Origin: Deltaproteobacteria bacterium | GTDB lineage: Bacteria > Myxococcota_A > Polyangia > Haliangiales > Haliangiaceae | Reading direction: 5' to 3' | Length of the DNA: 36,496 bases | Assembly: GCA_013813945.1 (NCBI GenBank) | Contig: JACCQV010000586.1 | Span: forward strand, 1 to 36,496 | In this document: positions 2 to 21,758 of the stretch, piece by piece | How the letters are laid out: each line of letters opens with the position of its first letter | Position numbering within the stretch: the stretch's first letter is position 1 | Translations under genes and position numbers: made by a program | Notes under the pieces: generated by a model | Database searches by the model: none | The model's input: only the letters and a program-made list of their open reading frames with translations | What the model was told of the DNA's origin: nothing

Positions 2-97
2 GTCAACGCGATCGAGCCCGATAACCGTAGCGGCTACTACTACTCGTATTACGGCTACACGGAGAAGAATCCCGAACCGTCGCAATCCGAGGCGTGA
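2..97 (+). CDS. 3' end of a Wzc-like tyrosine autokinase (BY-kinase / polysaccharide co-polymerase) gene; 5'-partial at the window edge
   Basis: Frame 2 reads from the window edge as VNAIEPDNRSGYYYSYYGYTEKNPEPSQSEA-stop (TGA 95-97). Six Tyr in nine residues near the C-terminus is the Y-cluster typical of bacterial tyrosine autokinases. The polysaccharide-export context agrees. Only 31 codons are visible. Confidence 0.5.
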   Translation, partial: VNAIEPDNRSGYYYSYYGYTEKNPEPSQSEA

Positions 98-1074
98 GAT
101 CGATGACGCCGTTGCACGTCGTCGTCACAGGAGCCGCCGGGTTCATCGGCTCGCACACGTGCGAGCGGCTGGTCAAACAGGGGCACCGCGTCACCGGCAT
201 TGACTCGTTCGACGATTATCTCTACCCGGCCGACATCAAACGAGCCAATGCCGCGGAGCTGGCGAAGCTCCCGGCTGCGCAGTTCGAGCTGATCACCGCG
301 AACATCTGCGATGCCACAGCGATGGCATCGGCGTTGAGCTCCGACGTCGACGTGGTCTGCCATCTTGCCGCCCTCGCGGGCGTCCGGCCATCTCTCGCCG
401 AACCACTACGCTATCTGCGGACCAATATCGAAGGCACGGGCGTGATCATCGAGCGGATGCGTGCGATCGGCCTGCGTCGCCTGGTGTTCGCGTCTTCGAG
501 CTCGGTATACGGCGCCAAGTCTGGAACGCAGATCGCAGCGTTCACCGAGAATGATCCATGCCTTACGCCGGCGTCGCCCTATGCGGCGACCAAGCGCATG
601 AACGAGCTGCAGCTGTCGGCGTACCGTGACCTCTTCGGGCTCGGCGTGTTCGCGCTGCGCTTCTTCACGGTGTATGGACCGCGGCAACGCCCCGACATGG
701 CGATTCACAAGTTCGTCCGCGCGATCTCGACCGGTGCTCCGATCACCGTGTTCGGTGACGGCACCTCGCGACGCGACTACACGTTCATTGACGACATCGT
801 CACCGGCGTCGTCGCAGCCATCGAGCGTGTCGAGGCGGGACGCTACGAGGTGATCAATCTCGGTGGAACCTCCACCATCTCGCTGGCCGAGCTGATCGAG
901 GTGATCGAACGTGTCGTCGGCAAGCGCGCCGTGATCGATCGTCAGGCTGACCAGCCAGGCGACGTGCCGATCACCTACGCCAATATCGACCGCGCCCGCT
1001 CGTTCCTCGCATACAGCCCGACGACGCGCGTCGAAGAGGGCGTCGCCAAGTTCTGGGACTGGTTCCGACGTTAG
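94..1074 (+). CDS. NAD-dependent epimerase/dehydratase (extended SDR), UDP-glucuronate 4-epimerase-like
   Basis: 326-aa ORF. Motifs: Rossmann VTGAAGFIGSH, SSSSVYG, catalytic YAATK, and the RFFTVYGPRQRPDMA block typical of uronate 4-epimerase-type SDRs. GTG 94 overlaps the upstream stop (GTGA). ATG 103 (MTPLHVVVTG) is an alternative start. Confidence 0.8.
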   Translation: MRSMTPLHVVVTGAAGFIGSHTCERLVKQGHRVTGIDSFDDYLYPADIKRANAAELAKLPAAQFELITANICDATAMASALSSDVDVVCHLAALAGVRPSLAEPLRYLRTNIEGTGVIIERMRAIGLRRLVFASSSSVYGAKSGTQIAAFTENDPCLTPASPYAATKRMNELQLSAYRDLFGLGVFALRFFTVYGPRQRPDMAIHKFVRAISTGAPITVFGDGTSRRDYTFIDDIVTGVVAAIERVEAGRYEVINLGGTSTISLAELIEVIERVVGKRAVIDRQADQPGDVPITYANIDRARSFLAYSPTTRVEEGVAKFWDWFRR

Positions 1075-1085
1075 AACACTCATCA

Positions 1086-2165
1086 ATGGAGCTGACGGTG
1101 AATACGAATGCAGCGACTTCATCGTGGAGCGGACCGCTCGCGACGGCAGCGGGGTCCGTCGCAAGTGCGGCAGAGGACCTGGGCACCTCGCAGTGGGCTT
1201 CGGTCATTCGGGCCTGGACTGTGCCGTTCCTGTTTCATGGCATGGAGGAGGTGTTCAATAGCGGCGAGGACCCAACGACCGGGTTGCAGCGCGTCCTGGA
1301 TCGTCTCTGCGACACGTTGAAGACGTCAGCAGCCTCGGGATTCGGTGCTCTCAGCGCACCTGCCGCGGCACGCGAGCAGAGTGTGGCGGTCGAGAAAATG
1401 ACCGGGGAGCACTACGGTCGCCTGTTCCGCGAGTTCAGCAAGGAATCCTTCGCATCGGAACCCGCGCGGCTACTGAACGACCGCCTCACCCGGAACAACG
1501 TCACGCTGCCTGACTTGAAGACAGCTCGCGTCCTCGATGCGGGGTGCGGCGGTGGGCGCTACTCCGTTGCATGGCACCTGCTCGGTGCACATGACGTCCT
1601 TGGTGTTGACCTGTCCGAGCCTGGCATCGCAGATGCCCGCGCGCGTGCGGAGGCGATGAAGCTGCAAGGTGTCAGGTTCGAGCATGCCGATGTCGTCGAG
1701 CTTCCGCTCGAGCGCGACAGCTTCGACCTCGTGTTCTCCAACGGAGTCTTGCATCACACGCGGGACTGGGCGCGTGGCATCGAGCGGTTGGTGTCGGTGC
1801 TCAAGCCGGGCGGCCTCGGCTGGCTCTACTTGATCGAAAACCCAGGTGGCTATTTTTGGGATGTGATCGAGCTCGCCCGCAAGATCATGCGCACCGAAGT
1901 CCACGAGCAAGCGCGCGTAGCAGTCGCGATGCTCGGGATTCCTGCGAATCGCATCTTCTACATGCTCGATCACGTGATGGTGCCGATCAATCTGCGGCTC
2001 ACGACGGAAGAGATCACGGCAGAGCTCAAGAAGGGCGGCGCCCGCGACATCCGCCGGCTGACACGCGGCACCGACTTCGATCGGGTCGAGCGCATCTACC
2101 AGAAAGACTCCTACGCGGTCGAAAAGTACGGTGCCGGCGAGCATCGATTCGTTTTCACCAAATAG
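1086..2165 (+). CDS. Class I SAM-dependent methyltransferase with an N-terminal extension of about 100 aa
   Basis: SAM motif I VLDAGCGGGRYS, followed by GVDLS, FDLVFSNGVLHH and LKPGGLGWLY. The start is uncertain: ATG 1086 lies 11 nt after the upstream stop, and internal ATG 1398 (MTGEHYGRLF) would give a canonical-size enzyme. Confidence 0.75.
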   Translation: MELTVNTNAATSSWSGPLATAAGSVASAAEDLGTSQWASVIRAWTVPFLFHGMEEVFNSGEDPTTGLQRVLDRLCDTLKTSAASGFGALSAPAAAREQSVAVEKMTGEHYGRLFREFSKESFASEPARLLNDRLTRNNVTLPDLKTARVLDAGCGGGRYSVAWHLLGAHDVLGVDLSEPGIADARARAEAMKLQGVRFEHADVVELPLERDSFDLVFSNGVLHHTRDWARGIERLVSVLKPGGLGWLYLIENPGGYFWDVIELARKIMRTEVHEQARVAVAMLGIPANRIFYMLDHVMVPINLRLTTEEITAELKKGGARDIRRLTRGTDFDRVERIYQKDSYAVEKYGAGEHRFVFTK

Positions 2166-2170: not shown

Positions 2171-3106
2171 ATGAAGGCACTTCCCCGCGTGACGCCGCTG
2201 GTCTCGATCATGCTGCCCTGCTTCAACTCGCAGGACACGCTGCCGCTCGCTCTCGCGTCGTGCATCGGGCAGTCCATCGATGACTGGGAGTGCGTGTGCC
2301 TCGACGATGGCTCCACGGATCGAACCTCGGAGATCCTCGAGTATGCGGCCGCGCGTGATTCCCGGTTCCGGATCGACCGGTTCACGGTCAATCAGGGGCG
2401 CGGCGCTGGACGGCAGCGCATCCTGGAGCTCGTGCGCGGTGAATACCTCGCGTTCCTGGACTCCGACGACTGGATGTACCCGGAGCGCCTCGCACGTGAG
2501 GTCCGGTGGCTGGAAGCCGACTCCAAGATCGCTGCCGTAAGTGCCTGCGCTGCAGTAACAGATGGACCAGATGTTCTTGTCGGTGTGCAACGCCCGCGTG
2601 CTCCACACGCGCTGCCGACCGTCGCGATGTTCGATCGCCCCGTGCCTCCACCGCTCGTGTTCCCCACGTCCATGATCCGGACGGACCTCGCGAAGGCCAC
2701 AGGCTTTGATCCAGCCTTTCGCCGCTCGCAGGACTCCGACTTTCTGATCAGGGCGCTGCTCGGCAAGCACTACGCCCTCGGATCCGAAATCTTGTACGCC
2801 TACTCGCAGGCCAGCGCAGCGAACCTCGAACGAACTCTCGAGGGCTATCACTACCGCATGCGATCTCATCTCCGGCACTGGCAAGCCCATCCGGTGCGGG
2901 TCATGCGCACTCTCTCGGAGACGGGCGCGAAGATCCTCGCGTATCGAGCCGCCGGACTGCTGGGCATGGAGAGCTCCTTGATTCATCGCCGATGGGATGC
3001 CTTCGACGAAGGTCACCGGCACGAGTTCGCCGCTGCTCTCGCGCAAGTTCGCGTGGCCGAATCGGCGCTGTTCGAATCGGCTCAGCCCGCGACTGGTAGC
3101 CCGTAA
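2171..3106 (+). CDS. Glycosyltransferase family 2
   Basis: N-terminus VSIMLPCFNSQDTLPLALASCIGQSIDDWECVCLDDGSTDRT and DXD motif FLDSDDWMYP. ATG 2171 lies 5 nt after the methyltransferase stop. The track ORF from 1856 is an out-of-frame overlap artefact. Confidence 0.85.
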   Translation: MKALPRVTPLVSIMLPCFNSQDTLPLALASCIGQSIDDWECVCLDDGSTDRTSEILEYAAARDSRFRIDRFTVNQGRGAGRQRILELVRGEYLAFLDSDDWMYPERLAREVRWLEADSKIAAVSACAAVTDGPDVLVGVQRPRAPHALPTVAMFDRPVPPPLVFPTSMIRTDLAKATGFDPAFRRSQDSDFLIRALLGKHYALGSEILYAYSQASAANLERTLEGYHYRMRSHLRHWQAHPVRVMRTLSETGAKILAYRAAGLLGMESSLIHRRWDAFDEGHRHEFAAALAQVRVAESALFESAQPATGSP

Positions 3107-3107: not shown

Positions 3108-5018
3108 ATGTGCGGCATCGTCGGCGCGCTCCGTCTCGATAGCACCCACGTCAATGGGGAGTGGCTCCGTGTCGCTCGTGACTGTCTGACCCATCGGGGC
3201 CCCGACGACGCCGGGATGCACCTCGAGGGAGGCTTGGGTCTCGCTCACCGTCGACTGTCGATCATCGATTTGTCCGAAGCCGGCCGGATGCCGATGACGA
3301 ATGAGACCGGCGACGTGTGGGCCGTCTTCAATGGCGAGATCTACAACTTCCCCGCGCTTCGAACCGAGCTCGAGGGGCATGGTCACGTCTTCCGCAGTCA
3401 CACCGACAGCGAAGTCGTCGTGCATGCGTACGAGCAGTGGGGCACGGACAGCTTCGCTCGTTACGACGGAATGTTTGCTGTCGCGATCTGGGATCGGAAG
3501 CGCCGTCGTCTCGTGCTCGCGCGTGACATCGCCGGCGAGAAGCCGCTGTACTACTTCCACAAGGCCAACAAGGTCGTGTTGTTCGCGTCGACGATCAGTC
3601 CGCTCCTGACGTCACCCGAGGTCCCCCGTGTGGTCGACCCAGAGGCGTTGCGCTTGTACGCCGAGTTTGGCTTCGTGCCCGAAACTCGTTCGATCATCGA
3701 GGGCGTCCAGAAGGTCGCGCCTGGAACCTTCGTCGTGTTCGAGGACAACCAGGCGCCCGTTCGTCACACGTACTGGAGCTTCAAGGACTCCGTCCTGCCC
3801 AACCGGCCAGAGCGCGAGGTAACGCTCGATCAAGCCACCGATCATCTTCACGAGTTGCTGCGTTCATCCGTGCGCGCGAGGCTCGTCGCCGATGTGCCAC
3901 TCGGCGCGTTCCTGTCCGGTGGCATCGATTCGAGCCTGGTCGTCGCGCTCATGGCGGAGACGAGTGCACGCACGGTGCGAACGTTCACGATCGGCTTTCG
4001 CGAAGCCGCGTTCGATGAGAGCGAGTATGCACATCGCGTGGCCAAGCATCTCGGCGTGGAGAACACGACGATGGTGGTGTCCGCTGCCGATGTCCTACGC
4101 GAGCTCGATTCGATCACCCATGCCTTCGACGAGCCGATGGCGGACTACTCCGCACTCCCAAGTCTCGCCGTTGCCCGCCTTGCCCGCCGACACGTCACCG
4201 TTGCGCTCACCGGCGACGGAGCCGACGAGGCGTTCGGTGGATACCGATACTATGGGGCCACTCGCCTGTTCGAGAAGGTCTCGTCAATCGTGCCGCGAGT
4301 CGTTCGCCGACAAATCGCTCGAGCTGCTGCGCTGGTACCCGATCCGCGTGTTCGACGAGCACTTGCCCGTTCTTCTTCGATCGACGCGGCTGCGTACTTC
4401 GGTCGCAGTGGGTTCTATCGGGGCGCGACCGCGAGCTCCGGCCTGCTTCACATTTTTCCGCCTGACTCTCCCCGCCACTCTCCGGCGGACACTGTCGCGA
4501 GCTACGTCCGATCGTTCCCCCATTTGCGGGCGACGGAAGCCGGCATGTTGTGGGACGCCACTCACACCCTTCCCGGCGCCTGGTTGGCCAAGGTCGATCG
4601 GACAACGATGGCCGTGGGTCTCGAAGCTCGGGCGCCGTTTCTCGATCGTCGGGTGCTCGAGTACGCATTCCAACTACCGCTGGACCATCGCGTCCGCGGT
4701 CAGCAGAAGAAGATCGTCTTGAAGCGAGTACTTGCCCGATATCTCCCGACGGAGCTGATCGAGCGTCCCAAGCAAGGGTTCACCGCCCCCATGCGGACAT
4801 GGTTCGCGAATGAGCTTCGCGCCGAGCTCTACGATCGGTTGTCCCCGGCGCGCGTTGCGCGATTCGGTGTGTTCGATCCGGCTGGCGTTCAGAAACTTCT
4901 CCGAGATCAGACGAGCGGTGCCGCAGATCACACCCAGCTCCTGTGGGCCCTGTTTCATCTCGATCGTTGGTATGACGCGTACATCGAGAGCCCGAAGGGC
5001 ATCAGCTCGGCGGCGTGA
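3108..5018 (+). CDS. Asparagine synthase-family glutamine amidotransferase (AsnB-like), copy 1
   Basis: Starts MCGIVGAL (Cys2 Ntn nucleophile). Carries the PP-loop FLSGGIDSS. 636 aa. ATG 3108 lies 1 nt after the GT2 stop. Confidence 0.9.
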   Translation: MCGIVGALRLDSTHVNGEWLRVARDCLTHRGPDDAGMHLEGGLGLAHRRLSIIDLSEAGRMPMTNETGDVWAVFNGEIYNFPALRTELEGHGHVFRSHTDSEVVVHAYEQWGTDSFARYDGMFAVAIWDRKRRRLVLARDIAGEKPLYYFHKANKVVLFASTISPLLTSPEVPRVVDPEALRLYAEFGFVPETRSIIEGVQKVAPGTFVVFEDNQAPVRHTYWSFKDSVLPNRPEREVTLDQATDHLHELLRSSVRARLVADVPLGAFLSGGIDSSLVVALMAETSARTVRTFTIGFREAAFDESEYAHRVAKHLGVENTTMVVSAADVLRELDSITHAFDEPMADYSALPSLAVARLARRHVTVALTGDGADEAFGGYRYYGATRLFEKVSSIVPRVVRRQIARAAALVPDPRVRRALARSSSIDAAAYFGRSGFYRGATASSGLLHIFPPDSPRHSPADTVASYVRSFPHLRATEAGMLWDATHTLPGAWLAKVDRTTMAVGLEARAPFLDRRVLEYAFQLPLDHRVRGQQKKIVLKRVLARYLPTELIERPKQGFTAPMRTWFANELRAELYDRLSPARVARFGVFDPAGVQKLLRDQTSGAADHTQLLWALFHLDRWYDAYIESPKGISSAA

Positions 5019-5098
5019 CAGCGTCGATCTCAGCTCGCACGTAACGCGAGCATTGGGATCCTCGGCTATGCTCCGACACCGCATTTGGCACGCCATCG

Positions 5099-6160
5099 AT
5101 GAGCGCCTCACTTCGCAACATGATCCGGTTTCCGGCCGCCGCCCGCGGCACGGGCTGCGTGATCGTTGGTGAAGTCGCGCAGTCTCACGATGGGAGCCTC
5201 GGACTCGCCCATTCGTTCATCGATGCGATCGCGGACGCCGGCGCCGATGCGGTCAAGTTCCAGACGCACATCGCTGCCGCCGAGAGTACGCCGGGCGAAC
5301 CGTGGCGCGTGAAGTTCAGCAAGCAGGACGCTTCTCGCTACGACTACTGGAAGCGGATGGAGTTCACAGAGACACAATGGACTGGCCTCAGGCAACACGC
5401 CGACGAGAGGGGGCTGCTGTTCCTCAGCTCGCCGTTCTCTTTGGAAGCTGTCGAGTTGTTGAGGCGCCTCGACATGGCTGTCTGGAAGATCGCATCAGGT
5501 GAGGTGAGCAATCTGATGCTTCTTGAGGCCATCGCAAAGACCAAGCGTCCCATGGTGCTGTCGTCGGGTATGAGCAACCTACAGGAGCTCGATGCCGCCG
5601 TGGCACTCGTGCGTGGTGCCGAAGTCCCGTTCGGCGTCATGCAGTGCACGTCCATGTACCCATGTCCTCCCGACAAGGTCGGGCTCGGGCTCCTCGAGAC
5701 CTATCGTGCACGCTACGGCTGCCCGGTTGGTCTCTCCGATCATTCTGGAACCATCTATCCCGGACTCGCAGCAGCCACCCTCGGCTGCGACATCCTGGAA
5801 ATCCACGTCGCGCTTTCTCGCGAGATGTTCGGGCCAGACGTTCCATCATCCGTCACCACGAGCGAGCTGCGCCAGCTGGTCGAAGGCATCCGGTTCATAG
5901 AGGCCATGCGTGGCGGCGACGTGGACAAGGACGCCATGGCCGAGGAGCTCTCGACGGTTCGCGCACTCTTCACGAAGAGTGTTGTGGTCCGACGAGCCCT
6001 GCCTGCCGGAACCGTCCTTCGGCTCGATCACCTCACTGTCAAAAAACCAGGCACCGGCATTCCGGCTGCCAATCTTGCCGACCTCGTCGGCCGCACTCTG
6101 CGGCGCGAGGTCGCGGCGGACACCCTGCTCAGCGTGAGCGATCTGGAGGACGCGAAGTGA
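5099..6160 (+). CDS. neuB: Nonulosonic acid synthase (NeuB/LegI/PseI family; N-acetylneuraminate synthase-like)
   Basis: VIVGEVAQSHDGSLGLAHSFIDAIADAGADAVKFQTH matches the NeuB TIM-barrel N-terminus. The C-terminal region (VVVRRALPAGTVLRLDHLTVKKPGTGIP) looks like a SAF/antifreeze-like domain. Sugar specificity (Neu vs Leg) is not resolvable by eye. Confidence 0.88.
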   Translation: MSASLRNMIRFPAAARGTGCVIVGEVAQSHDGSLGLAHSFIDAIADAGADAVKFQTHIAAAESTPGEPWRVKFSKQDASRYDYWKRMEFTETQWTGLRQHADERGLLFLSSPFSLEAVELLRRLDMAVWKIASGEVSNLMLLEAIAKTKRPMVLSSGMSNLQELDAAVALVRGAEVPFGVMQCTSMYPCPPDKVGLGLLETYRARYGCPVGLSDHSGTIYPGLAAATLGCDILEIHVALSREMFGPDVPSSVTTSELRQLVEGIRFIEAMRGGDVDKDAMAEELSTVRALFTKSVVVRRALPAGTVLRLDHLTVKKPGTGIPAANLADLVGRTLRREVAADTLLSVSDLEDAK

Positions 6161-7314
6161 AGAAGCGCAGCGTCTGCGTCGTGATTACTGCCCGCCCGAG
6201 CTACAGCCGCATCAAGACGGCGCTCACAGCGATCAACAAGCACCCTGCGCTCGAGCTCAAGCTCGTCGTGGCAGCATCCGCACTGCTCGACCGGTACGGA
6301 AACGCCGTCAACGTCATCGAGAAGGACGGATTCAAGATCAACGAACGCGTGTTCATGGTGCTCGAGGGCGAGAGCCCGACATCGATGGCCAAGACCACGG
6401 GCCTTGGAATGATCGAGCTCGCGACGGTGTTCGATAATCTCAAGCCTGACGTCGTCGTGACCGTCGCTGATCGGTACGAGACCCTCGCGACTGCAGTAGC
6501 AGCGTCCTACATGAACTTGCCGCTCGCACACGTGCAGGGCGGCGAGGTCTCGGGCTCGATCGACGAGAAGGTACGCCACGCAGTGACCAAGCTCGCCGAC
6601 CTCCACTTCGTCTCGACGAAGCTGGCCGGAGAGAGAGTCACGAAGATGGGAGAGGATCCTGCGACGGTGTACTGCACGGGGTGCCCATCCATCGATCTCG
6701 CTGCCGAGATTCTCTCGGGTCCTGAGCTAGACTTCGATCCCACCAAGAAGTACGGCGGCGTTGGTCCCGAGCTGGACCTGTCCAAGGGCTATGCCGTCGT
6801 CATGCAGCACCCAGTGACAACCGAGTACCAGCTTGCTCGCCAGCACGTCACCGAGACTCTTCGCGCCTCGCGAGAGGTCGGCATTCCGACATTGTGGTTC
6901 TGGCCAAATGTCGACGCCGGATCCGACGGCACTTCTACAGGCGTGCGCACGTTCCGCGAGAACGAGAAGCCGACAAACATTCGGTTCTTCAAGAACATGG
7001 AACCGACCGACTTTCTGCGGCTGATCTACAACGCACGTTGTCTGATCGGGAACTCCAGTGTCGGTATCCGCGAAGCTTCGTTCCTGGGAGTCCCCGTCGT
7101 CAACGCCGGTTCCCGCCAAGGCGGTCGCGAGCGAGGCGCGAACGTCATCGATGTTGGATATCATCAGAGCGAGATCGCGGGCGCGATGCGTCGACAGCTG
7201 GACCACGGCCGCTACGCGAGCGACCGCACCTATGGGGTAGGCGACGCAGGCACGCGCATTGCCGATCTCCTTGCCGAGGTTCCGCTCAAGGTCGAGAAGC
7301 GGTTGGCCTACTGA
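6157..7314 (+). CDS. neuC: UDP-N-acetylglucosamine 2-epimerase, hydrolysing type (NeuC/LegG-like)
   Basis: VKKRSVCVVITARPSYSRIKTAL..., ADRYETLATAVAASYMNLPLAHVQGGEVSGSIDEKVRHAVTKLADLHF. GTG 6157 overlaps the neuB stop (GTGA). The track ORF start at 5644 is an overlap artefact. Confidence 0.85.
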   Translation: MKKRSVCVVITARPSYSRIKTALTAINKHPALELKLVVAASALLDRYGNAVNVIEKDGFKINERVFMVLEGESPTSMAKTTGLGMIELATVFDNLKPDVVVTVADRYETLATAVAASYMNLPLAHVQGGEVSGSIDEKVRHAVTKLADLHFVSTKLAGERVTKMGEDPATVYCTGCPSIDLAAEILSGPELDFDPTKKYGGVGPELDLSKGYAVVMQHPVTTEYQLARQHVTETLRASREVGIPTLWFWPNVDAGSDGTSTGVRTFRENEKPTNIRFFKNMEPTDFLRLIYNARCLIGNSSVGIREASFLGVPVVNAGSRQGGRERGANVIDVGYHQSEIAGAMRRQLDHGRYASDRTYGVGDAGTRIADLLAEVPLKVEKRLAY

Positions 7315-8009
7315 TGGATGTGCTCGGAGTCGTCACTGCACGCGGCGGCTCGAAGGGCGTACCGCGCAAGAATATCCGGCTCCTTGGCGGCAAGCCGTTG
7401 CTTGCCTGGACCGCCGAGGCCGCGCTGTCTGCGCGAAGCCTGACGAAGGTGATCCTCTCCACCGATGACGAAGAGATCGCAGCGATAGGAAGAGCCGCAC
7501 ACCTCGAGGTCCCGTTCATGCGTCCTCCCGAGCTAGCGCAGGATCGCACGCCGACGTTGGCTGTTCTGCAGCACGCGGTTGGCTGGGTCGAAGCGCAGGG
7601 CGAACGGTATGACGCGGTTTGTCTGCTGCAGCCGACCAGCCCGCTGCGAACGGCAGCGACGATCGATGGTTGCATCGCAAAGCTCGTCGAGACGGGCGCC
7701 GATGCGGTGGTCACCGTGCTCCGTGTCCCCGCCGAGCACAATCCGCACTGGGTGTACTTCGCGTCTGTCGATGGAGACCTGCACCTTGCGACTGGCGAGA
7801 CCGAGCCGATTTCTCGCCGCCAGGATCTCCCTCCCGCCTACCATCGGGAAGGCTCGGTCTACGTCACGCAGAGAGACGTCCTGATCGAGCAGAGCAGCTT
7901 GTACGGTGCGCGCGTGATCGGATACGAGGTCGACGCGTCGACGAGTGTCAACATCGACTCGCTCGAGGACTGGGCCCGTGCCGAGTCCCTCGTGCGGCCT
8001 GGAGCGTGA
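7314..8009 (+). CDS. neuA: Acylneuraminate cytidylyltransferase (CMP-nonulosonate synthetase), single-domain form
   Basis: MDVLGVVTARGGSKGVPRKNIRLLGGKPLLAWT and LLQPTSPLR motifs. 231 aa, so there is no C-terminal esterase domain. The ATG shares 1 nt with the neuC stop (TGATG). Confidence 0.85.
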   Translation: MDVLGVVTARGGSKGVPRKNIRLLGGKPLLAWTAEAALSARSLTKVILSTDDEEIAAIGRAAHLEVPFMRPPELAQDRTPTLAVLQHAVGWVEAQGERYDAVCLLQPTSPLRTAATIDGCIAKLVETGADAVVTVLRVPAEHNPHWVYFASVDGDLHLATGETEPISRRQDLPPAYHREGSVYVTQRDVLIEQSSLYGARVIGYEVDASTSVNIDSLEDWARAESLVRPGA

Positions 8010-8013
8010 CCCG

Positions 8014-9753
8014 ATGTGTGGGATCGCAGCCATCGCAGGTTCGAAGGATGCCGAGCGCAGAGTTGGCAGAATGATCAACCGTCTCCGTCATCGTGGTCCC
8101 GATGGTGAAGGGATCTGGACGGATAACGCAGGCGGAGTGTCGCTCGGTCAGCGCCGGCTGAGCATCCTCGATCTTTCTGTTCAGGGTCGCCAGCCCATGA
8201 CGAGCGCCAATGGCCGCTTCGTACTGACCTACAATGGCGAGGTCTACAACTATCGAGAGCTGCGCTCCGAGCTTGCCGACTATCCGTTTCACTCGCAGAC
8301 CGACACCGAAGTCGTGCTCGCCGCGTGGGTCCGGTGGGGCGAGGCATGCCTGGACCGGCTGATCGGAATGTTCGCCTTCGTGGTCTGGGATACGCACGCG
8401 CGCACGCTGATCGCCGTCCGCGATCGCTTCGGCGTCAAGCCGCTGTATGTCGCCTCGCTCGAAGAGGGTGGGATCGCACTGGCGAGCGAGATCAAGGCGC
8501 TGCACACCGCCGGTGTGCCGGCGACGGCGGATCCCGTCACGTGGTCGACCTATCTCGCAACGGGCCTCCACGAACACTCGACTCGTACGTTCTGGAGCGG
8601 AGTGTCAGCGGTTCCAGCCGGCACGATCTTGCACTGGGAAGCCGGCAAGCCCGCGACGCTGCGCCGGTGGTACGACCTCGCCGCGCGAGTCGGCCAGGAC
8701 GTGGATCCGCGGAGCGAAGCAACGGTTCGCGAGGAATACCTCGGACTCCTCGAGGACAGCGTTCGCCTGAGGTTCCGCTCGGATGTCCCCGTCGGGATCA
8801 ACCTGTCCGGTGGTCTCGACTCGTCGACCCTCCTCGGGGTCGTGCGCGCAGTGCAGGGAGCGGACAGCGATGTGAAAGCATTCACATTCGTCTGTGACGA
8901 CGAGCGATACGATGAGCTGCCCTGGGTGCAAGGCATGCTCGAGCAGACGAAGCACTCCCTCATCACGTGCACTCTGAGGCCTGACGAGGTTCCTGCCCTG
9001 GCAGCGCGCATGATGGTTGCGCAAGAGGAGCCGTTCGGCGGCCTTCCGACGCTCGCATACGGAAAGATCTTCGAGGCTGCGCGTGCCGCCGGAGTGATCG
9101 TGCTCCTCGACGGACAGGGCATGGATGAGCAGTGGGCCGGGTACGATTACTACCGCTCGGTCACAGATGATAAGAAACCCGCGCCGATCGTGCAGGGCGC
9201 GAAAGATCCGGCGGTTCGTCCAGAATGTCTCACCCCTGATCTCAGACGGCTCGTCGAGCCCTTCACTCCTCCGTCTCCGTTTCCTGATCGGCTCCGCAAT
9301 CTCCAGCTACGGGACGCACTACATACCAAGATCCCGCGTGCCCTCCGATTCAACGATCGTGTATCGATGGCTGCATCGACCGAGCTCCGCGAACCCTTCC
9401 TGGACCACCGTCTGTTCGAGCTTGCGATGAAACAGCCCGCCGATCGCAAGATCCGCGGCGACGTTGGCAAGCACCTCCTTCGAGAGATCACGACGAGCCT
9501 GGTTCCCGCGGGACTACGACTCGCGCCCAAGCGGGCATTGCAGACCCCGCAGCGCGAGTGGCTGCGGGGGCCTCTGCGCTCGTGGGCGGGCGAACAGATC
9601 GAGGCAGGTCTGGCGGCTCACTCCGACTGGTTTGACATTCCCGCGGCTCACCACGCGTGGAACAGCTACGTCGCAGGCGAAGGTGACAACAGTTTTTGGG
9701 TCTGGCAGTGGCTCTCTGTGGGTCTCGCCGCGCAACGAGGAGAATTGTCGTGA
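8014..9753 (+). CDS. Asparagine synthase-family glutamine amidotransferase (AsnB-like), copy 2
   Basis: Starts MCGIAAIAG (Cys2 nucleophile). Carries the PP-loop NLSGGLDSS. 579 aa. ATG 8014 lies 4 nt after the neuA stop. Confidence 0.9.
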   Translation: MCGIAAIAGSKDAERRVGRMINRLRHRGPDGEGIWTDNAGGVSLGQRRLSILDLSVQGRQPMTSANGRFVLTYNGEVYNYRELRSELADYPFHSQTDTEVVLAAWVRWGEACLDRLIGMFAFVVWDTHARTLIAVRDRFGVKPLYVASLEEGGIALASEIKALHTAGVPATADPVTWSTYLATGLHEHSTRTFWSGVSAVPAGTILHWEAGKPATLRRWYDLAARVGQDVDPRSEATVREEYLGLLEDSVRLRFRSDVPVGINLSGGLDSSTLLGVVRAVQGADSDVKAFTFVCDDERYDELPWVQGMLEQTKHSLITCTLRPDEVPALAARMMVAQEEPFGGLPTLAYGKIFEAARAAGVIVLLDGQGMDEQWAGYDYYRSVTDDKKPAPIVQGAKDPAVRPECLTPDLRRLVEPFTPPSPFPDRLRNLQLRDALHTKIPRALRFNDRVSMAASTELREPFLDHRLFELAMKQPADRKIRGDVGKHLLREITTSLVPAGLRLAPKRALQTPQREWLRGPLRSWAGEQIEAGLAAHSDWFDIPAAHHAWNSYVAGEGDNSFWVWQWLSVGLAAQRGELS

Positions 9754-10514
9754 AGGTCGTCATTCTTGCCGGCGGACTAGGAACACGAATCAGCGAGGAA
9801 ACCCAGGTCAGGCCGAAGCCCATGGTGGAGCTCGGCGGCAAACCGATCCTTTGGCACATCATGAAGACCTACTCGCACTGGGGCTTCAACGACTTCGTCG
9901 TGTGCCTCGGCTATCGCGGGTACATGATCAAGGAGTACTTCGCGAACTACTTCGTCCACACCTCCGACATGACGTTCCATCTCGCGGAGAACCGCGTGGA
10001 GGTTCACGCGCAACACTCGGAACCATGGCGAGTGACGCTCGTCGACACCGGGGATCAGACTCAGACCGGCGGTCGACTGAAGCGGGTGCAGAAGTATCTG
10101 GGCGACGAGGATTTCTGTTTCACCTACGGCGACGGGTTGAGCAATGTGAATGTGCGTGAGCTGGTCGACTTCCATCGCGCGCAAAACTGCATCGCGACGA
10201 TCACCACGGTTCAACCTCCGGGTCGGTTCGGAATGTTGACGATGGAGGACCGAAAGATCACTGGGTTCCAGGAGAAGCCGCAGGGCGATGGCTCCTGGAT
10301 CAATGGCGGCTTCTTCGTGCTGCGTCCCCAGGCGATCGATTACATCGAGAACGACTCGACGATCTGGGAGCGCCGTCCCCTCGAGAAGCTGGCCGCCGAG
10401 GGCCAGCTGTCAGCGTTCGTCCACAAGGGCTTCTGGCATCCGATGGACCACCTGCGCGACAAGGTCCTCCTCGAGGAGCTATGGGCGTCCGGCAAGGCAC
10501 CATGGAAAGTCTGA
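9750..10514 (+). CDS. rfbF: Glucose-1-phosphate cytidylyltransferase
   Basis: VKVVILAGGLGTRISEETQVRPKPMVELGGKPILWHIMKTYSHWGFNDFVVCLGYRGYMIKEYFANYF is near-diagnostic for RfbF/DdhA. GTG 9750 overlaps the upstream stop (GTGA). Confidence 0.93.
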   Translation: MKVVILAGGLGTRISEETQVRPKPMVELGGKPILWHIMKTYSHWGFNDFVVCLGYRGYMIKEYFANYFVHTSDMTFHLAENRVEVHAQHSEPWRVTLVDTGDQTQTGGRLKRVQKYLGDEDFCFTYGDGLSNVNVRELVDFHRAQNCIATITTVQPPGRFGMLTMEDRKITGFQEKPQGDGSWINGGFFVLRPQAIDYIENDSTIWERRPLEKLAAEGQLSAFVHKGFWHPMDHLRDKVLLEELWASGKAPWKV

Positions 10515-10519
10515 GAGTG

Positions 10520-11575
10520 ATGACCGGCTTCTGGCGGGACAAACGGGTTCTTCTCACGGGGCACACGGGGTTCAAGGGCTCATGGCTCTCGCTGTGGCTC
10601 GCGGAGCTTGGCGCGAAGGTCGTTGGTTTCGCACTCGCGCCCTCGGGTACGCCCAACCTGTTCGATCAGGCGCGCGTCGGCGAACGTGTTCAGTCGATCA
10701 TCGGCGACATCCGCGACCCGGATCACGTGGCGCAGGTGATGCGCGACGCCCAGCCCGAGATCGTGTTGCACCTCGCAGCGCAGTCGCTGGTCCGCACATC
10801 CTACGAAGCTCCGGTCGAGACGTTCGCCGTCAACGTCATGGGCACGACGCATGTTCTCGAAGCGGCGCGGCACGTCGGCTCGGTCCGCTCCGTGGTCGTC
10901 GTCACCACCGACAAGTGTTACGAGAACCGCGAGTGGCTGTGGGGATATCGCGAGGGAGACGCCCTGGGTGGTCACGACCCCTACTCGACGAGCAAGGCAT
11001 GCGTGGAGCTCGTTACCTCGGCGTACCGCCGGTCCTTCTTCACGAAGGGCGATATCGGCGTCGCGTCTGCGCGCGCCGGTAATGTCATCGGCGGCGGCGA
11101 TTGGGCGAAGGACCGGATCGTTCCCGACATGGCGCGTGCCGCGCTTGCTGGCGAATCCGTGCTCGTGCGCAACCCGCGAAGCACACGACCCTGGCAGCAC
11201 GTCCTCGACGTCTTGCACGGATATCTCCTGCTCGCCGAGCGGCTCCACGGCGATCCAGCCCGTCACGCCGATGCGTGGAACTTCGGCCCCGCCGCGGAGG
11301 ACGTTCGCGCTGTCGGCGATCTCGCGGATGCCGTGTGCTCGCGGTGGGGAGGCGGGACGAGATGGCACCATGAAGCCGTCATCCAGCCCCACGAAGCAGG
11401 CGCGCTGACCCTCGACGCGACGAAGGCGAGGACGTTGCTCGGCTGGAGGCCCACGCTCCGGTTCGAACAAGCCGTTCAATGGAGTATCGACTGGTACAAG
11501 GCACATGGCGATCGTTCGGACCTGGCCGCCACGACGCTCGGCCAGATCCAGCGATTTCAGGAGCTCGCGTCGTGA
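10520..11575 (+). CDS. rfbG: CDP-glucose 4,6-dehydratase
   Basis: MTGFWRDKRVLLTGHTGFKGSWLSLWLAELGAKV, TTDKCYEN and YSTSKACVE (YxxxK). I prefer ATG 10520, 5 nt after the rfbF stop. ATG 10481 or 10502 are possible overlapping starts. Confidence 0.9.
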   Translation: MTGFWRDKRVLLTGHTGFKGSWLSLWLAELGAKVVGFALAPSGTPNLFDQARVGERVQSIIGDIRDPDHVAQVMRDAQPEIVLHLAAQSLVRTSYEAPVETFAVNVMGTTHVLEAARHVGSVRSVVVVTTDKCYENREWLWGYREGDALGGHDPYSTSKACVELVTSAYRRSFFTKGDIGVASARAGNVIGGGDWAKDRIVPDMARAALAGESVLVRNPRSTRPWQHVLDVLHGYLLLAERLHGDPARHADAWNFGPAAEDVRAVGDLADAVCSRWGGGTRWHHEAVIQPHEAGALTLDATKARTLLGWRPTLRFEQAVQWSIDWYKAHGDRSDLAATTLGQIQRFQELAS

Positions 11576-12795
11576 ACTGTCGTTTTTGTGAACGTCCTCT
11601 CCGCCACTCCCTGGTCGATCTCGGTATGCAGCCGCTATCGAATTCGTATGTCGACGCGACACGCGCCGAGGCGATGGAGCCCTTCTATCCTCTGCATGCG
11701 CGGGTGTGCGAGGACTGCTTGCTGGTGCAGCTACCGGTGTTCGAAGCCCCGGAGCAGATCTTCACCGACTACGCCTATCTCTCGTCGGTATCGAAGAGCT
11801 GGCTCGAGCACTGCGATCGATTCGCGCAGACGATGCACGACATGCTTCGTCTGGGCAGCAACGACCTGGTGGTCGAGGTGGCGAGCAACGACGGCGGTCT
11901 GCTTCAGTGCTTCCGGACCCGCGATATCCGCGTGCTCGGCATCGAGCCCGCCGCGAACGTAGCCGACATCGCGCGTGCTGCTGGCGTGGACACCGTCGCT
12001 CGGTTCTTTGGTTCCGCGCTTGCGACCGAGCTCAAGTCGAAGGGCACGTCGCCGCGGCTCCTCGTTGGCAATAACGTGCTCGCCCACGTACCAGATCTGA
12101 ACGACTTCGTGCGCGGCCTACAGACCTTGCTCGCGCCGGATGGCGTCTTGTCGATGGAGTTTCCGCACCTGTTGCAGCTGATGCAGGGCAACCAGTTCGA
12201 CACAATCTATCACGAGCACTTTTCGTACCTGTCGCTACTCACGGTCAGTCGCGTGTTCGCACACCACGGGCTCCGCGTGTTCGACGTGGTGACACTGCCG
12301 ACCCATGGTGGATCGATCCGCGTCCTCGCCTGTCAAAGTGGCTTCACCGGGCTGGCCACGACGGAACGGGTTAACAACGTGCTCGAGGTCGAGCGGGCTG
12401 CTGGGCTCACCAGCATGGCGACCTACGAGGCGTTCTCGAAGCAGGTCCATGAGACCAAGCGCAAGTTGCTCGAGTTCCTGATTGCGCAGAGGCGTGCAGG
12501 AAAGCGCATCGTGGGCTACGGCGCGCCCGCGAAGGGAAACACGCTCCTCAACTACTGCGGCATCCGCGAAGACTTCCTCGAGTTCACCGTCGACCGCAGC
12601 CCGCTGAAGCAGGGCAAGTTGCTTCCAGGAACACGCATCCCGGTGCGTGCGCCCGAAGCGTTGACGGACGCGCGACCAGACCTTGTACTCATCTTGCCGT
12701 GGAACATCGAGCGAGAAATCGTCGAACAGCTCGCGTTCATTCGGGAGTGGGGCGGCAAGTTCATCGTGCCTATTCCCGAAGTCCGCGTCGTCTAG
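11572..12795 (+). CDS. NDP-hexose C-methyltransferase-like protein: zinc-ribbon N-domain, SAM methyltransferase core and C-methyltransferase C-terminal domain
   Basis: CRFCE...CEDC Cys pairs at the N-terminus, SAM-binding VVEVASNDGGLL, and C-terminal GYGAPAKGNTLLNYCG. This architecture resembles TylC3/EvaC/NovU-type enzymes. GTG 11572 overlaps the rfbG stop (GTGA). Confidence 0.7.
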   Translation: MNCRFCERPLRHSLVDLGMQPLSNSYVDATRAEAMEPFYPLHARVCEDCLLVQLPVFEAPEQIFTDYAYLSSVSKSWLEHCDRFAQTMHDMLRLGSNDLVVEVASNDGGLLQCFRTRDIRVLGIEPAANVADIARAAGVDTVARFFGSALATELKSKGTSPRLLVGNNVLAHVPDLNDFVRGLQTLLAPDGVLSMEFPHLLQLMQGNQFDTIYHEHFSYLSLLTVSRVFAHHGLRVFDVVTLPTHGGSIRVLACQSGFTGLATTERVNNVLEVERAAGLTSMATYEAFSKQVHETKRKLLEFLIAQRRAGKRIVGYGAPAKGNTLLNYCGIREDFLEFTVDRSPLKQGKLLPGTRIPVRAPEALTDARPDLVLILPWNIEREIVEQLAFIREWGGKFIVPIPEVRVV

Positions 12796-13325
12796 TGAAG
12801 TTCATCCCGGTACCGCTTGCGGGCGCATTCGTGCTCGAGGTCGAGCGTCACGATGACGAGCGCGGCGGGTTTGGCCGTACGTACTGCGCGCGTGAGCTTG
12901 CAGCGCAGGGTCTCGACCCGAGGATCGCGCAGTGCAGCATGTCGTGGAACACGTCGCGCGGCACGCTGCGCGGCATGCACTACCAGGCCAGCCCACACGA
13001 GGAGGCGAAGACCGTGCGAGTCGTGGCCGGTGCGATCTTCGACGTGATGGTCGATCTGCGGCCCGGATCGCCAACCCGCGGCCAGTGGTTCGGGGCCGAG
13101 CTGTCTGCGAGCAACCACCGTGCGCTCTACATTCCAGCAGGCTTCGCGCACGGGTTCCTCACCATGAGTGACCAGAGCGTCGTCCATTACCAGATCAGCG
13201 ACTTCTATGTCCCGGAAGCCAGCCGTGGGTTCCGCTGGGACGATCCCAGCGTCGCAATCGCGTGGCCGTTCCCGCCAACCTGCATCAGCGATCGGGACCG
13301 CGCGCTTCCCGGGCTGGATGTATGA
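12795..13325 (+). CDS. dTDP-4-dehydrorhamnose 3,5-epimerase-family (RmlC-like cupin) NDP-sugar epimerase
   Basis: VKFIPVPLAGAFVLEVERHDDERGGF, RGMHYQ, VMVDLRPGSPTRGQW and IPAGFAHGF. The GTG shares 1 nt with the upstream TAG stop. Confidence 0.85.
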   Translation: MKFIPVPLAGAFVLEVERHDDERGGFGRTYCARELAAQGLDPRIAQCSMSWNTSRGTLRGMHYQASPHEEAKTVRVVAGAIFDVMVDLRPGSPTRGQWFGAELSASNHRALYIPAGFAHGFLTMSDQSVVHYQISDFYVPEASRGFRWDDPSVAIAWPFPPTCISDRDRALPGLDV

Positions 13326-13990
13326 CCATGGTCCCGTCGGAGCTCGCGGGCTGGATCATCTGGGGCGCCGCCGGCCACGCTCGGGTGATCCGCGAGGCCC
13401 TCGGGGACCGGGCACCTGCGCTGCTTGCCACGTTCGATAACGCCGAGGGTGTGCCTGCGCCGTTTGCCGACGTTCCGCTTCATCACGGAACCCCCGGCTT
13501 CGCCGCCTGGCGACGCACGGCGAGCGGACCGATCGGGTTCGTCGTCGCGATCGGTGGTGCACACGGTTTGACCCGGTGCAGGCTCCACGACTGGCTCGTG
13601 ACCGAGGGACTGACTCCGGTCACCGTGATTCATCGCACCGCCTTCGTAGCGGCGACCGCGAAGGTCGGTGCCGGGAGCCATGTCCTGGCGCAAGCAGCGG
13701 TCTGTGTGGATGTCGAGCTCGGGCCGCAGTGCATCATCAACACAGGTGCGAGCGTCGATCACGAATGTCGCCTCGGTGCCGGCGTTCATGTCGCGCCCGG
13801 CGCCCATCTCGCAGGACTCGTCGACGTCGGCGACCATGTGTTCATCGGTCTCGGCGCGAACATCCTCCCCCGGATCCGGATCGGCGCAGGTGCAATCATC
13901 GGTGCCGGAGCAGTAGTCACGCACGACGTTTCCGCCGGCGCCACGATGGTGGGTATCCCAGCTCGCCCGATCGAAAAACCTAGCTCATGA
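13322..13990 (+). CDS. NeuD/PglD/VioB-family sugar acetyltransferase (left-handed beta-helix)
   Basis: N-terminal IIWGAAGHARVIREAL Rossmann-like subdomain, followed by hexapeptide repeats (GASVDHECRLGAGVHVAPGAHLAGLVDVGDHVFIGLGANILPRIRIGAGAIIGAGAVV). ATGA overlap with the epimerase stop. Confidence 0.8.
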   Translation: MTMVPSELAGWIIWGAAGHARVIREALGDRAPALLATFDNAEGVPAPFADVPLHHGTPGFAAWRRTASGPIGFVVAIGGAHGLTRCRLHDWLVTEGLTPVTVIHRTAFVAATAKVGAGSHVLAQAAVCVDVELGPQCIINTGASVDHECRLGAGVHVAPGAHLAGLVDVGDHVFIGLGANILPRIRIGAGAIIGAGAVVTHDVSAGATMVGIPARPIEKPSS

Positions 13991-15117
13991 CAACACCCCG
14001 CATCCCGATCGCAGGCCCCTGGATCACCCAGCGAGAAATCGATTACGTGGCGGATGCGACCGCCAACGCTTGGTACGGATCCGCGAACCTCTATCACGAC
14101 AAGTTCGAACGGGCGTTTGCAGGACACCTCGGCGTTCGGCACGCGATGGCATTGCCATCGTGTACGTCCGGATTGCACCTCGCGCTTGCCGCTCGCGGCA
14201 TTGGCCCAGGAGATGAGGTGATCGTCCCGGACATCACCTGGATCGCGAGCTGCGCGCCGATCACGTACGTGGGTGCGACGCCAGTGTTCGCGGATGTCGA
14301 CCCCGATACCTGGTGCATCTCTGCGAGCTCGATCGAGAAGTGTCTGACGCCAAGGACGCGAGCACTGATCCCCGTCGACCTCTACGGTCATCCCGCCGAC
14401 TACGACAGCATCAACGAGCTTGCGCGTGCGCATGATCTGTTCGTGATCGAGGACGCGGCCGAAGCCGTCGGTGCCACGTACCGCGGCCGACCCGCGGGCA
14501 GTCTCGCCCACGTCGGCGTGTTCAGCTTCCACGGTTCCAAGACGTTGACGACCGGCGAAGGCGGACTGCTCGCGACCGACGACTCAGCGTTGTACGAACG
14601 CGCCGCCTTCCTCCGTGATCACGGGCGCAAACCCGGAGATGTGTTCTTCTTCAATCACGAGGTCGCGTTCAAGTACAAGATGAGCAGTATGCAGGCCGCG
14701 CTCGGCCTCGCGCAGCTCGAGCGCCTGGACGAGCTGATGACGCGCAAGCGTCAGATCTTCGCGTGGTATCGCGAGCGCCTGTCAGGCATCTCCGGTCTCT
14801 CGCTGAATTACCAGGCACCCGGCACCACGAACGCCTACTGGATGATCACAGTGCTCTGGGAGCCGGGGCTGCTTCCGGACAAACGAAAGACCATGGAGCT
14901 GCTGGCCGAGCGCGGAATTGATACCCGGCCCTTCTTCCATCCGTTGAGTGCAATTCCGGCCTACGCAGGTTCGGTCGAGGCTCAGCGCGCAGTTCGCGAG
15001 AACACCGTTGCGCACTCGCTGACAAACCGGGCCTTGAACTTACCTTCAGCGCTCACCCTCGAGGAGGCGCACGTCGATCGAGTATGTGACGCGCTGCTCG
15101 CAGTTCTCCGCAGCTAG
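13987..15117 (+). CDS. DegT/DnrJ/EryC1/StrS-family PLP-dependent NDP-sugar aminotransferase
   Basis: 376 aa. The active-site block VFSFHGSKTLTTGEGG retains the Schiff-base Lys, so this is an aminotransferase rather than an E1-type 3-dehydrase. ATGA overlap with the upstream gene. Confidence 0.9.
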   Translation: MTTPRIPIAGPWITQREIDYVADATANAWYGSANLYHDKFERAFAGHLGVRHAMALPSCTSGLHLALAARGIGPGDEVIVPDITWIASCAPITYVGATPVFADVDPDTWCISASSIEKCLTPRTRALIPVDLYGHPADYDSINELARAHDLFVIEDAAEAVGATYRGRPAGSLAHVGVFSFHGSKTLTTGEGGLLATDDSALYERAAFLRDHGRKPGDVFFFNHEVAFKYKMSSMQAALGLAQLERLDELMTRKRQIFAWYRERLSGISGLSLNYQAPGTTNAYWMITVLWEPGLLPDKRKTMELLAERGIDTRPFFHPLSAIPAYAGSVEAQRAVRENTVAHSLTNRALNLPSALTLEEAHVDRVCDALLAVLRS

Positions 15118-18714: not shown

Positions 18715-18823
18715 ATCCCAAGAGTGCCCCCGATCCGAGGAACCCGGATGTGACGGCCGCCGGGCGGAAGGGATTGGAGACCTTGTCGTCGGAGAGCTGA
18801 AGGCATACGATTCGCGACCGCAA
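18715..18823. promoter_or_regulatory. Divergent intergenic region between block B and block C; presumed bidirectional promoter region
   Basis: This 109-bp non-coding gap lies between two divergently oriented starts, if GTG 18824 is the right-hand start. I recognised no consensus promoter elements. Confidence 0.25.
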
Positions 18824-21689: not shown

Positions 21690-21723
21690 TTGCTTCGAGG
21701 GGGCATCTCGGTAGAATGCCCCC
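21690..21723 (+). promoter_or_regulatory. Sigma-70-like promoter candidate overlapped by a perfect 8-bp inverted repeat
   Basis: TTGCTT (21690-21695), a 16-nt spacer, then TAGAAT (21712-21717). Inverted repeat GGGGGCAT (21699-21706) / ATGCCCCC (21716-21723) with a 9-nt spacer. It lies in the 91-bp gap upstream of the dehydrogenase gene. Confidence 0.3.
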
Positions 21724-21758
21724 GCGCTTCAGAGCGCCTCACCCAGAGGCAGATCACC

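Follow-up and report, generated by a model that had tools for sequence, protein, structure and literature searches.

An AsnB-type amidotransferase as the fourth gene of neuB-neuC-neuA cassettes, with a probable part in tailoring the nonulosonate

AsnB-type WbpS enzymes turn sugar carboxylates into amides, as indicated by genetic evidence: deletion of wbpS deprives Porphyromonas gingivalis of its uronamide, and in Helicobacter pullorum N-acetylhexosaminuronic acid (HexNAcA) is found instead of its amide HexNAcAN (PMC7468200, PMC6025236). WbpS of Pseudomonas aeruginosa O6, WbqG of Escherichia coli O121, PGN_1234 and H. pullorum WbpS join an N-terminal nucleophile (Ntn) glutaminase to a PP-loop synthetase and are encoded in glycan loci. 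We describe two genes with the same architecture and setting, encoding AsnB-1 and AsnB-2, that flank neuB, neuC and neuA on a contig of a Deltaproteobacteria bacterium of the Haliangiaceae (JACCQV010000586.1, positions 1 to 36,496; the window, below, is this whole stretch of 36,496 nt). While the WbpS group acts on hexuronates and is linked either with UDP-HexNAc dehydrogenases (WbpO) or with the Wbp pathway, the AsnB-1 and AsnB-2 clades track nonulosonate genes. On balance we think it probable that the block combines a CMP-nonulosonate pathway with two dedicated glycan amidotransferases, and that AsnB-2 tailors the nonulosonate, most likely to a C1 carboxamide. The AsnB family and its type of reaction are known; what is new is the dedicated clade, the substrate class and the conserved neuBCA-asnB cassette, of which a literature search found no description.

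Several other described enzymes share part of this picture. The PseA/WbpG/LfnA-type amidotransferases (NASAT, TIGR03573) provide the known route to acetamidino nonulosonates and uronates and occur in the same kinds of loci, but their PP-loop subfamily is unrelated and has no Ntn glutaminase fused to it, and an NCBIfam scan of AsnB-1 and AsnB-2, both of which have that domain, gave no TIGR03573 match. In Tannerella forsythia the AsnB homologue Tanf_01265 belongs to an O-glycosylation cluster and was suggested by the authors to make Pse5Am, the acetamidino form of pseudaminic acid (PMC6120980). That cluster also holds pse/leg genes, but Tanf_01265 does not sit beside CMP-sugar genes in a fixed cassette, and since the glycan also has the amide of N-acetylmannosaminuronic acid (ManNAcA), the enzyme may be WbpS-type. 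The N-acetylglutaminylglutamine amidotransferase of TIGR03104 (AsnO-type) is likewise an AsnB paralogue that amidates a carboxylate other than that of aspartate, although it acts on an osmolyte dipeptide and is encoded in a setting unlike that of the window. For both window proteins the nearest solved structure by sequence is 7YLZ, deposited as 'hydroxyamidotransferase' (E-values 1.9e-43 and 3.5e-66), which we take to be TsnB9 of the trichostatin pathway, acting on a non-aspartate carboxylate. It is AsnB-type like both proteins and keeps Glu at the position of E. coli E348; unlike them, it comes from a secondary-metabolite pathway with no sugar context.

The window is a Wzx/Wzy-type surface-polysaccharide locus with 63% G+C, in which the + strand carries, in order, an epimerase of the short-chain dehydrogenase/reductase (SDR) family, a methyltransferase, a GT2 glycosyltransferase, AsnB-1, NeuB, NeuC, NeuA, AsnB-2 and a CDP-hexose cassette (Table 1). 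The first-pass annotation, made from the sequence alone, had described two full-length AsnB-type genes around neuB-neuC-neuA in a tightly packed, co-directional block. Coordinates and two-domain Pfam matches agree with this description, as do the junctions read from the sequence. The GT2 stop lies 1 nt ahead of the AsnB-1 start (TAA-C-ATG), neuB and neuC overlap at GTGA, neuC and neuA at TGATG, and AsnB-2 and the next gene again at GTGA. Exactly 4 nt separate neuA from AsnB-2 (TGA-CCCG-ATG), the spacing that had been reported. The widest gap, 80 nt, runs from the AsnB-1 stop to the neuB start, and no terminator-like site above chance was found in it; a promoter and terminator scan likewise gave nothing above chance.

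The Cys2 starts and PP-loops previously quoted for the two proteins were all found in place: MCGIVGAL and SGGIDSS (residues 270-276, 3915-3935) in AsnB-1, MCGIAAIAG and SGGLDSS (residues 265-271, 8806-8826) in AsnB-2. Pfam Asn_synthase matches AsnB-1 and AsnB-2 with E-values of 4e-101 and 2e-58, and both pass the cut-off of 267 bits for the broad asparagine synthase model TIGR01536 (454.6 and 366.6 bits). The best NCBIfam match of AsnB-1 is TIGR03108 (eps_aminotran_1), the WbpS/WbqG family, which it matches over its full length at 565.6 bits, short of the cut-off of 816.9; AsnB-2 reaches 352.9 bits with the same model. Strong but partial matches to TIGR03104 (426 and 287 bits) stay under its cut-off of 570. 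We aligned both proteins with E. coli AsnB, whose numbering is used for residue positions; a second MAFFT run shifted one column around residues 384-387, and the HMMER alignment and the first MAFFT run, which agree, were used. The Cys nucleophile after the initiator Met, together with R49, N74, G75, E76 and D98, is present in AsnB-1, AsnB-2 and 68 of 68 AsnB-2-clade sequences, and the PP-loop SGGxDS, D351, E352, Y357, K429 and K449 are also invariant. Judged by these residues, the glutaminase and adenylation machinery is intact in both enzymes. The two proteins are only 31% identical to each other, indicating that they are old paralogues rather than products of a recent duplication; a recent tandem duplication is ruled out by this identity and by their separate clades. 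Each clade is monophyletic, so the earlier view of two distinct enzymes stands, and two different reactions are plausible.

A protein search with AsnB-2 returned relatives at 59-80% identity that form a tight family and bear no annotation beyond 'asparagine synthase', and a scan of one genome per species yielded 80 loci. In trees built with FastTree and IQ-TREE (LG+C20), in which WbpS, WbqG and PGN_1234 were not included, all orthologues of at least 43% identity formed one clade of 70 sequences with support of 100 by both methods. Upstream DNA of 4 kb or more is available for 61 of the clade loci, and 60 of these have neu genes: NeuB, NeuC and NeuA together in 49, two of them in 9, one in 2 and none in 1. 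Most often neuA is directly upstream of AsnB-2, and a neu gene lies within 300 nt of it in 34 of the 61 loci and within 1.5 kb in 53. By comparison, among 80 generic AsnB loci of the glycan-locus kind taken from metagenomes, a single one has a neu gene (Fisher p about 1e-37, uncorrected for relatedness), and sister AsnB lineages, at no more than 37% identity, have no neu genes. Carriers are found in Bacteroidota (34, mostly cultured Flavobacteriaceae), Acidobacteriota (18), Gemmatimonadota, Actinomycetota, Chloroflexota, Armatimonadota and the lineage of the window itself. AsnB-2 is thus a regular fourth gene of the nonulosonate pathway in at least seven phyla. It forms a clade separate from that of AsnB-1 and scores lower than AsnB-1 with the WbpS-family model TIGR03108 (353 bits).

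The surroundings of this four-gene unit vary. Two unrelated metagenome contigs with NeuB-NeuC-NeuA-AsnB differ in export, one being of the ABC-transporter type and the other of the Wzz/Wzx type, and in a third context AsnB-2 adjoins an AsnB-1 orthologue with NeuA and NeuB nearby. As export type and glycosyltransferases change from locus to locus, the nonulosonate pathway is the sole constant partner, and the simplest substrate for AsnB-2 is the nonulosonate or its CMP form. The first-pass annotation had left the choice between a nonulosonic and a hexuronic acid open; for AsnB-2 the evidence favours the former, a sugar 6-dehydrogenase being present in only 5 of 69 clade loci. The bracketing of the neu genes by two amidotransferases, which it had also emphasised, is present here but is not a conserved arrangement: L036, L119 and L214 are the only other loci with both clades, in none of them do the copies flank the neu genes, and only the downstream position of AsnB-2 is kept across many phyla.

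The clade is marked by the signature DGQGMDEQW (9109-9135 in the window), which places Q368 at the position of E. coli E348, and by K439, R442 (D384), R445 (R387), R507 and R514, with R507 adjoining the catalytic K506, the equivalent of K449. Of these, K439, R442, R507 and R514 are basic residues specific to the clade, located in or next to the active site. The window protein falls within the clade, directly follows neuA and carries the signature as well as K439, R442, R507 and R514.

The three neu genes encode, in one operon, a 2-epimerase, a SAF-domain synthase of the phosphoenolpyruvate-condensing type and a CTP_transf_3 cytidylyltransferase. NeuC exceeds the cut-off of TIGR03568 (371 against 236 bits) and is 62-78% identical to the NeuC of most AsnB-2-linked cassettes. 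NeuB scores 300 bits against TIGR03569, for which the cut-off is 400, and its nearest solved structure is Neisseria meningitidis NeuB/SiaC, ahead of PseI. Among solved structures, NeuA is closest to the CMP-Neu5Ac synthetases 6IFD and 1EYR. The predicted product is a CMP-nonulosonate of the Neu or Leg type. A legionaminic- or pseudaminic-type cassette is unsupported as the conserved context, given the placement of NeuB and the presence of a DegT aminotransferase in only 4 of 69 AsnB-2 loci. The window also encodes a PglF-like dehydratase and a LegC-like aminotransferase, which probably serve other pathways.

How AsnB-2 might act is suggested by its two domains. The Cys2 glutaminase domain would free ammonia from glutamine, the PP-loop domain would adenylate a group on the nonulosonate or its CMP-activated form, and ammonia would then displace AMP from the adenylated sugar group. 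To our knowledge all AsnB-family enzymes activate carboxylates, and their products include asparagine, uronamides, the N-acetylglutaminylglutamine dipeptide amide (NAGGN), a hydroxamate, lactams and lasso peptides. Since the family precedent is limited to carboxylates, and C1 is the sole carboxylate made by the four-gene cassette, the most likely product would be the C1 carboxamide, a neutral sialic-acid-like sugar. The basic residues K439, R442, R507 and R514 fit a substrate that is anionic and lacks an ammonium group, CMP-Neu5Ac being an example.

A second target would be the N5 acetamido carbonyl, whose adenylation by AsnB-2 would give an acetamidino nonulosonate (Neu5Am or Leg5Am, the latter from legionaminic acid) and make the enzyme a functional analogue of the PseA/WbpG type. 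The nitrogen-adding modifications so far documented on nonulosonates are all acetamidino groups (Pse5Am, Leg5Am), related superfamily members are known to use PP-loop chemistry on amide or ureido carbonyls, and a free C1 carboxylate could be bound by R442 and R445. We nevertheless rate this possibility as rather unlikely, because we know of no characterised AsnB-family enzyme that forms an amidine, all of them using carboxylates, and because neither protein has an NCBIfam match to the NASAT family. The proposal of an AsnB homologue for Pse5Am in the T. forsythia glycan locus speaks for an acetamidino product, but it is only a suggestion, and that glycan also has a uronamide (PMC6120980). The two products cannot be told apart by mass, as C1 carboxamide and N-acetimidoyl formation entail the identical change of -0.984 Da. 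Of the two, we place the C1 carboxamide ahead of the N-acetimidoyl product.

Genes inserted into the cassettes bear on this ranking. Genes placed after neuA and ahead of asnB2, or within the neu gene group, encode S-adenosylmethionine (SAM)-dependent methyltransferases (about 8 loci), GT2 glycosyltransferases (7), CE4 deacetylases (4) and formyltransferases (2); L067 and L080 have a deacetylase together with a formyltransferase, and a deacetylase occurs on its own in 8 of 69 AsnB-2 cassettes. Directly upstream of neuC in two Acidobacteriota loci (L054, 3881-6017; L058, 3911-6029) lies a GNAT-like and deacetylase gene pair homologous to one in the window (19557-21667), which may edit the N-acyl group of the nonulosonate. 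Cassettes with a deacetylase and a formyltransferase or GNAT gene would replace the N-acetyl group, yet they keep AsnB-2. The retention of AsnB-2 next to N-acyl-exchanging or -decorating genes in several cassettes mildly favours an invariant target, the C1 carboxylate, over the acetamido group.

The same insertions raise the question of whether AsnB-2 acts on another small carboxylate, for example a hydroxy-acid precursor of an N-acyl group, that is later attached to the nonulosonate. A D-isomer-specific 2-hydroxyacid dehydrogenase gene stands between neuA and asnB2 in 11-12 cassettes of Acidobacteriota and Flavobacteriaceae (examples in Table 1), and some AsnB-2 loci carry acyl-supply genes of the FkbH/acyl carrier protein (ACP) type. 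However, the dehydrogenase is found in only about one sixth of the cassettes, and the only universal partners of AsnB-2 are NeuB, NeuC and NeuA; we therefore regard a small-carboxylate substrate as very improbable.

Several observations weigh against a C1 carboxamide made by a dedicated AsnB-2 clade. We know of no natural C1 amide of a nonulosonate, and a literature search found no nonulosonate amide. Amidation of C1 before CMP activation or transfer might impede the synthetase and the transferase. The synteny counts are not phylogenetically independent, one clade locus (L099) lacks a neu gene, and genomes G026 and G029 have a 56% AsnB-2 orthologue with at most a distant neuA. In a sample of 401 genomes of the phylum, ten NeuC-positive genomes carry neither AsnB clade, so the modification would be optional. 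Gln at the E348 position is also found in 9 of 16 other sequences from sister AsnB lineages without neu genes, so this residue marks non-asparagine paralogues in general rather than nonulosonate specificity. For AsnB-1, the sugar 6-dehydrogenase encoded 16.7 kb away in the window leaves room for a uronamide role.

The G026 and G029 orthologues (loci L031 and L032; contigs G026:C280 and G029:C17), from another family of the same order, are without the neuB-neuC cassette, and their neighbours match AMP-binding, PP-binding, thioesterase and MaoC families. It is possible that these proteins have been recruited to another substrate.

If AsnB-2 does amidate C1, the result would be a neutral 'sialamide' that no natural glycan has been reported to contain, although it would be widespread among Acidobacteriota of soil, Flavobacteriaceae of the sea and of fresh water, Gemmatimonadota and Myxococcota-like bacteria. 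Much of the biology of sialic-acid-like sugars, including charge, recognition by phages and lectins and immune mimicry, depends on the C1 carboxylate and the N-acyl groups. Standard nonulosonate assays, which need the free alpha-keto acid, may under-detect a sialamide. A dedicated and widely distributed amidotransferase fixed as fourth pathway gene implies that a nonulosonate modification common in environmental bacteria is missing from structural catalogues. In genomes the clade can be recognised by an AsnB that has the DGQGMDEQW motif and is encoded immediately after neuA, and its cultured carriers include Flavobacterium resistens DSM 19382, Dokdonia pacifica DSM 25597, Gillisia mitskevichiae DSM 19839 and Salegentibacter holothuriorum DSM 23405.

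AsnB-1 has a different set of partners. Its close relatives (50-87% identity) come mostly from metagenome-assembled genomes (MAGs) of Myxococcota/Polyangiales and Pirellulales, and its clade of 14 sequences has support of 100 in both trees and is nested in a generic eps-type radiation. Neu genes are present in 11 of 13 AsnB-1-related loci. A GT2 partner 43-79% identical to the window glycosyltransferase (g03) adjoins the AsnB-1 orthologue or lies one gene away in 12 of the 13, and a KpsS/KpsC-like gene is found in 10. Within the phylum sample, 8 of 11 AsnB-1-positive genomes have NeuC, as against 10 of the 390 others. A metagenome scan with AsnB-1 returned generic relatives only (34-42% identity) and none of its own clade; these generic loci served as the background control. 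Overall these results indicate that AsnB-1 is a nonulosonate-locus enzyme, linked to neuBCA more loosely than AsnB-2 and coupled to assembly genes rather than to the CMP-sugar genes. Coupled to the GT2 enzyme, it would probably amidate a carboxylate on the assembled repeat unit, either that of the nonulosonate or that of a hexuronate made by the locus dehydrogenase.

It may be asked whether one or both proteins are instead ordinary WbpS-type uronamide synthases, acting on a hexuronate from the window dehydrogenase and only incidentally adjacent to the neu genes. The uronamide loss in the P. gingivalis and H. pullorum wbpS deletions provides the precedent (PMC7468200, PMC6025236), the best match of AsnB-1 is the family said to hold WbpS and WbqG, and the window does encode a nucleotide-sugar 6-dehydrogenase. 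That enzyme passes the cut-off of TIGR03026 with 263 bits, its closest equivalog being UDP-ManNAc dehydrogenase, under cut-off; together with the accompanying SDR it is all that the window encodes for making a hexuronate, and it is the alternative source of a carboxylate. Yet both proteins score under the TIGR03108 cut-off, and for AsnB-2 the rarity of dehydrogenases in clade loci stands against the near-constant neu genes. For AsnB-1, none of ten same-class loci (L212-L221) has a sugar dehydrogenase within about 9 kb, while 9 of the 10 have neu genes. We consider this uronamide reading unlikely. The earlier comparison with WbpS thus holds for AsnB-1 as far as its best HMM match goes, but its clade follows nonulosonate genes and not a uronate dehydrogenase. 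A tentative extension of the proposed chemistry is that AsnB-2 types make Neu5Ac-type C1 carboxamides, probably at the CMP stage, and that AsnB-1 types were recruited independently and act at the repeat-unit stage.

We also considered whether either copy is a housekeeping asparagine synthetase that merely lies in a glycan locus. Both pass the TIGR01536 cut-off, and in the assembly itself, which is 87% complete, they are the only genes that do so; no AsnA gene was found in it either. Across 40 related genomes, however, the number of AsnB-type genes ranges from zero to more than 10, and two near-complete genomes of the same genus, G014 (97% complete) and G015 (90% complete), have no AsnB-type gene. 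The genus (G000, G014, G015, G006 and G009) encodes GatB and AsnRS but no AsnA, so that the tRNA-dependent route to asparagine is available; as in Thermus and Deinococcus, the amino acid is probably formed on tRNA. The range of copy numbers and this alternative route suggest that AsnB-type genes act as accessory genes. In the genus they are missing from near-complete members, contrary to the distribution of a housekeeping gene.

Consistent with this pattern, the aspartate pocket is altered. Human ASNS E364, D367 and D400 build the pocket for the amino group of aspartate, and activity is lost when E364, the counterpart of E. coli E348, is changed to Gln or Ala (E364Q, E364A; PMC6748925). At E348, 63 of 68 AsnB-2-clade sequences have Gln, the substitution that inactivates the human enzyme, and AsnB-1 has Asp. 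D384 is replaced by Arg in the AsnB-2 clade and by Ala in AsnB-1, K376 by Asp in both, while R387 is Ala in AsnB-1 and Arg (R445) in AsnB-2. Both proteins therefore depart from the aspartate-binding and catalytic set E348, D384 and K376. With E. coli AsnB (1CT9) and human ASNS (6GQ3) they share the fold family, the glutaminase residues, the PP-loop, K449, D351, E352 and Y357, but identity to E. coli AsnB is only about 29%, that protein sits on a long outgroup branch in the trees, and the window genes are accessory within the genus, not universal. Placing both proteins in a phylogeny with E. coli AsnB, as had been proposed, put them far from it and inside glycan-locus clades. By phyletic pattern, pocket residues and tree placement it is very unlikely that AsnB-1 and AsnB-2 make free asparagine, in agreement with the first-pass annotation. 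On the same three lines we reject a housekeeping synthetase, to which we give hardly any weight, and the name uniformly given to these genes, 'asparagine synthase (glutamine-hydrolysing)', is very probably wrong functionally.

Table 1. Coordinates of features in the window and, in the last row, of insertions in related cassettes (positions within the respective locus)
Feature	Position	Strand	Family match
SDR epimerase	94-1074	+	
SAM-dependent methyltransferase (g02)	1086-2165	+	Pfam Methyltransf_11/25/31
GT2-family glycosyltransferase (g03)	2171-3106	+	Pfam Glycos_transf_2
AsnB-1, 636 aa	3108-5018	+	Pfam GATase_7/GATase_6 + Asn_synthase
NeuB-type nonulosonate synthase	5099-6160	+	PF03102 + SAF
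NeuC-type hydrolysing UDP-HexNAc 2-epimerase	6157-7314	+	TIGR03568
NeuA-type CMP-nonulosonate synthetase	7314-8009	+	PF02348
AsnB-2, 579 aa	8014-9753	+	Pfam GATase_7/GATase_6 + Asn_synthase
CDP-hexose cassette	9750-15117	+	
CE4 polysaccharide deacetylase	19557-20555	+	Pfam Polysacc_deac_1
GNAT-like acyltransferase	20552-21667	+	Pfam Acetyltransf_9/7
Nucleotide-sugar 6-dehydrogenase + SDR	21690-23995 (dehydrogenase 21690-23021, likely start about 21759)	+	TIGR03026
Capsule_synth (KpsS/KpsC-like) protein	25230-26744, likely start near 26657	-	PF05159
2-Hydroxyacid dehydrogenase examples	L055:8933-9883, L063:9042-9995, L058:8998-9996		

Among the remaining genes of the window, the KpsS/KpsC-like protein has homologues (43-64% identity) in 11 related Myxococcota-type loci, always with neu genes, and the Acidobacteriota and Flavobacteriaceae cassettes lack it. 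For the transfer of the CMP-activated nonulosonate in this lineage, the protein is a good candidate. Homologues of the g02 methyltransferase recur in neu/AsnB loci (L119, 69%; L214, 52%; L033, 40%; L053, 39%), in L053 between neuA and asnB2. The CDP-hexose cassette is translationally coupled and encodes a cytidylyltransferase, a 4,6-dehydratase, a three-domain sugar C-methyltransferase, a 3,5-epimerase, an acetyltransferase of the NeuD/PglB/VioB type and a DegT aminotransferase; its predicted product is a C-methyl-branched N-acetylamino-6-deoxyhexose. Two long open reading frames, 17866-18846 (-) and 18341-19549 (+), have no Pfam match and overlap by about 500 nt. Homologues of the former adjoin AsnB-1 in L030 (34%) and directly follow AsnB-2 in L119 (40%), suggesting that it is probably real; the + strand frame probably starts later than listed.

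Two further observations concern the wider set of loci. Three MAGs labelled Heliomicrobium (Bacillota; L041, L057 and L092) have AsnB-2 cassettes that cluster with those of Blastocatellia (Acidobacteriota); the bins may carry unreliable taxonomic labels. In six Acidobacteriota loci (L051, L053, L058, L071, L096 and L097) a third AsnB type, of about 630 aa and 33% identical to AsnB-1, lies 6-8 kb downstream of AsnB-2 and forms a clade of its own.

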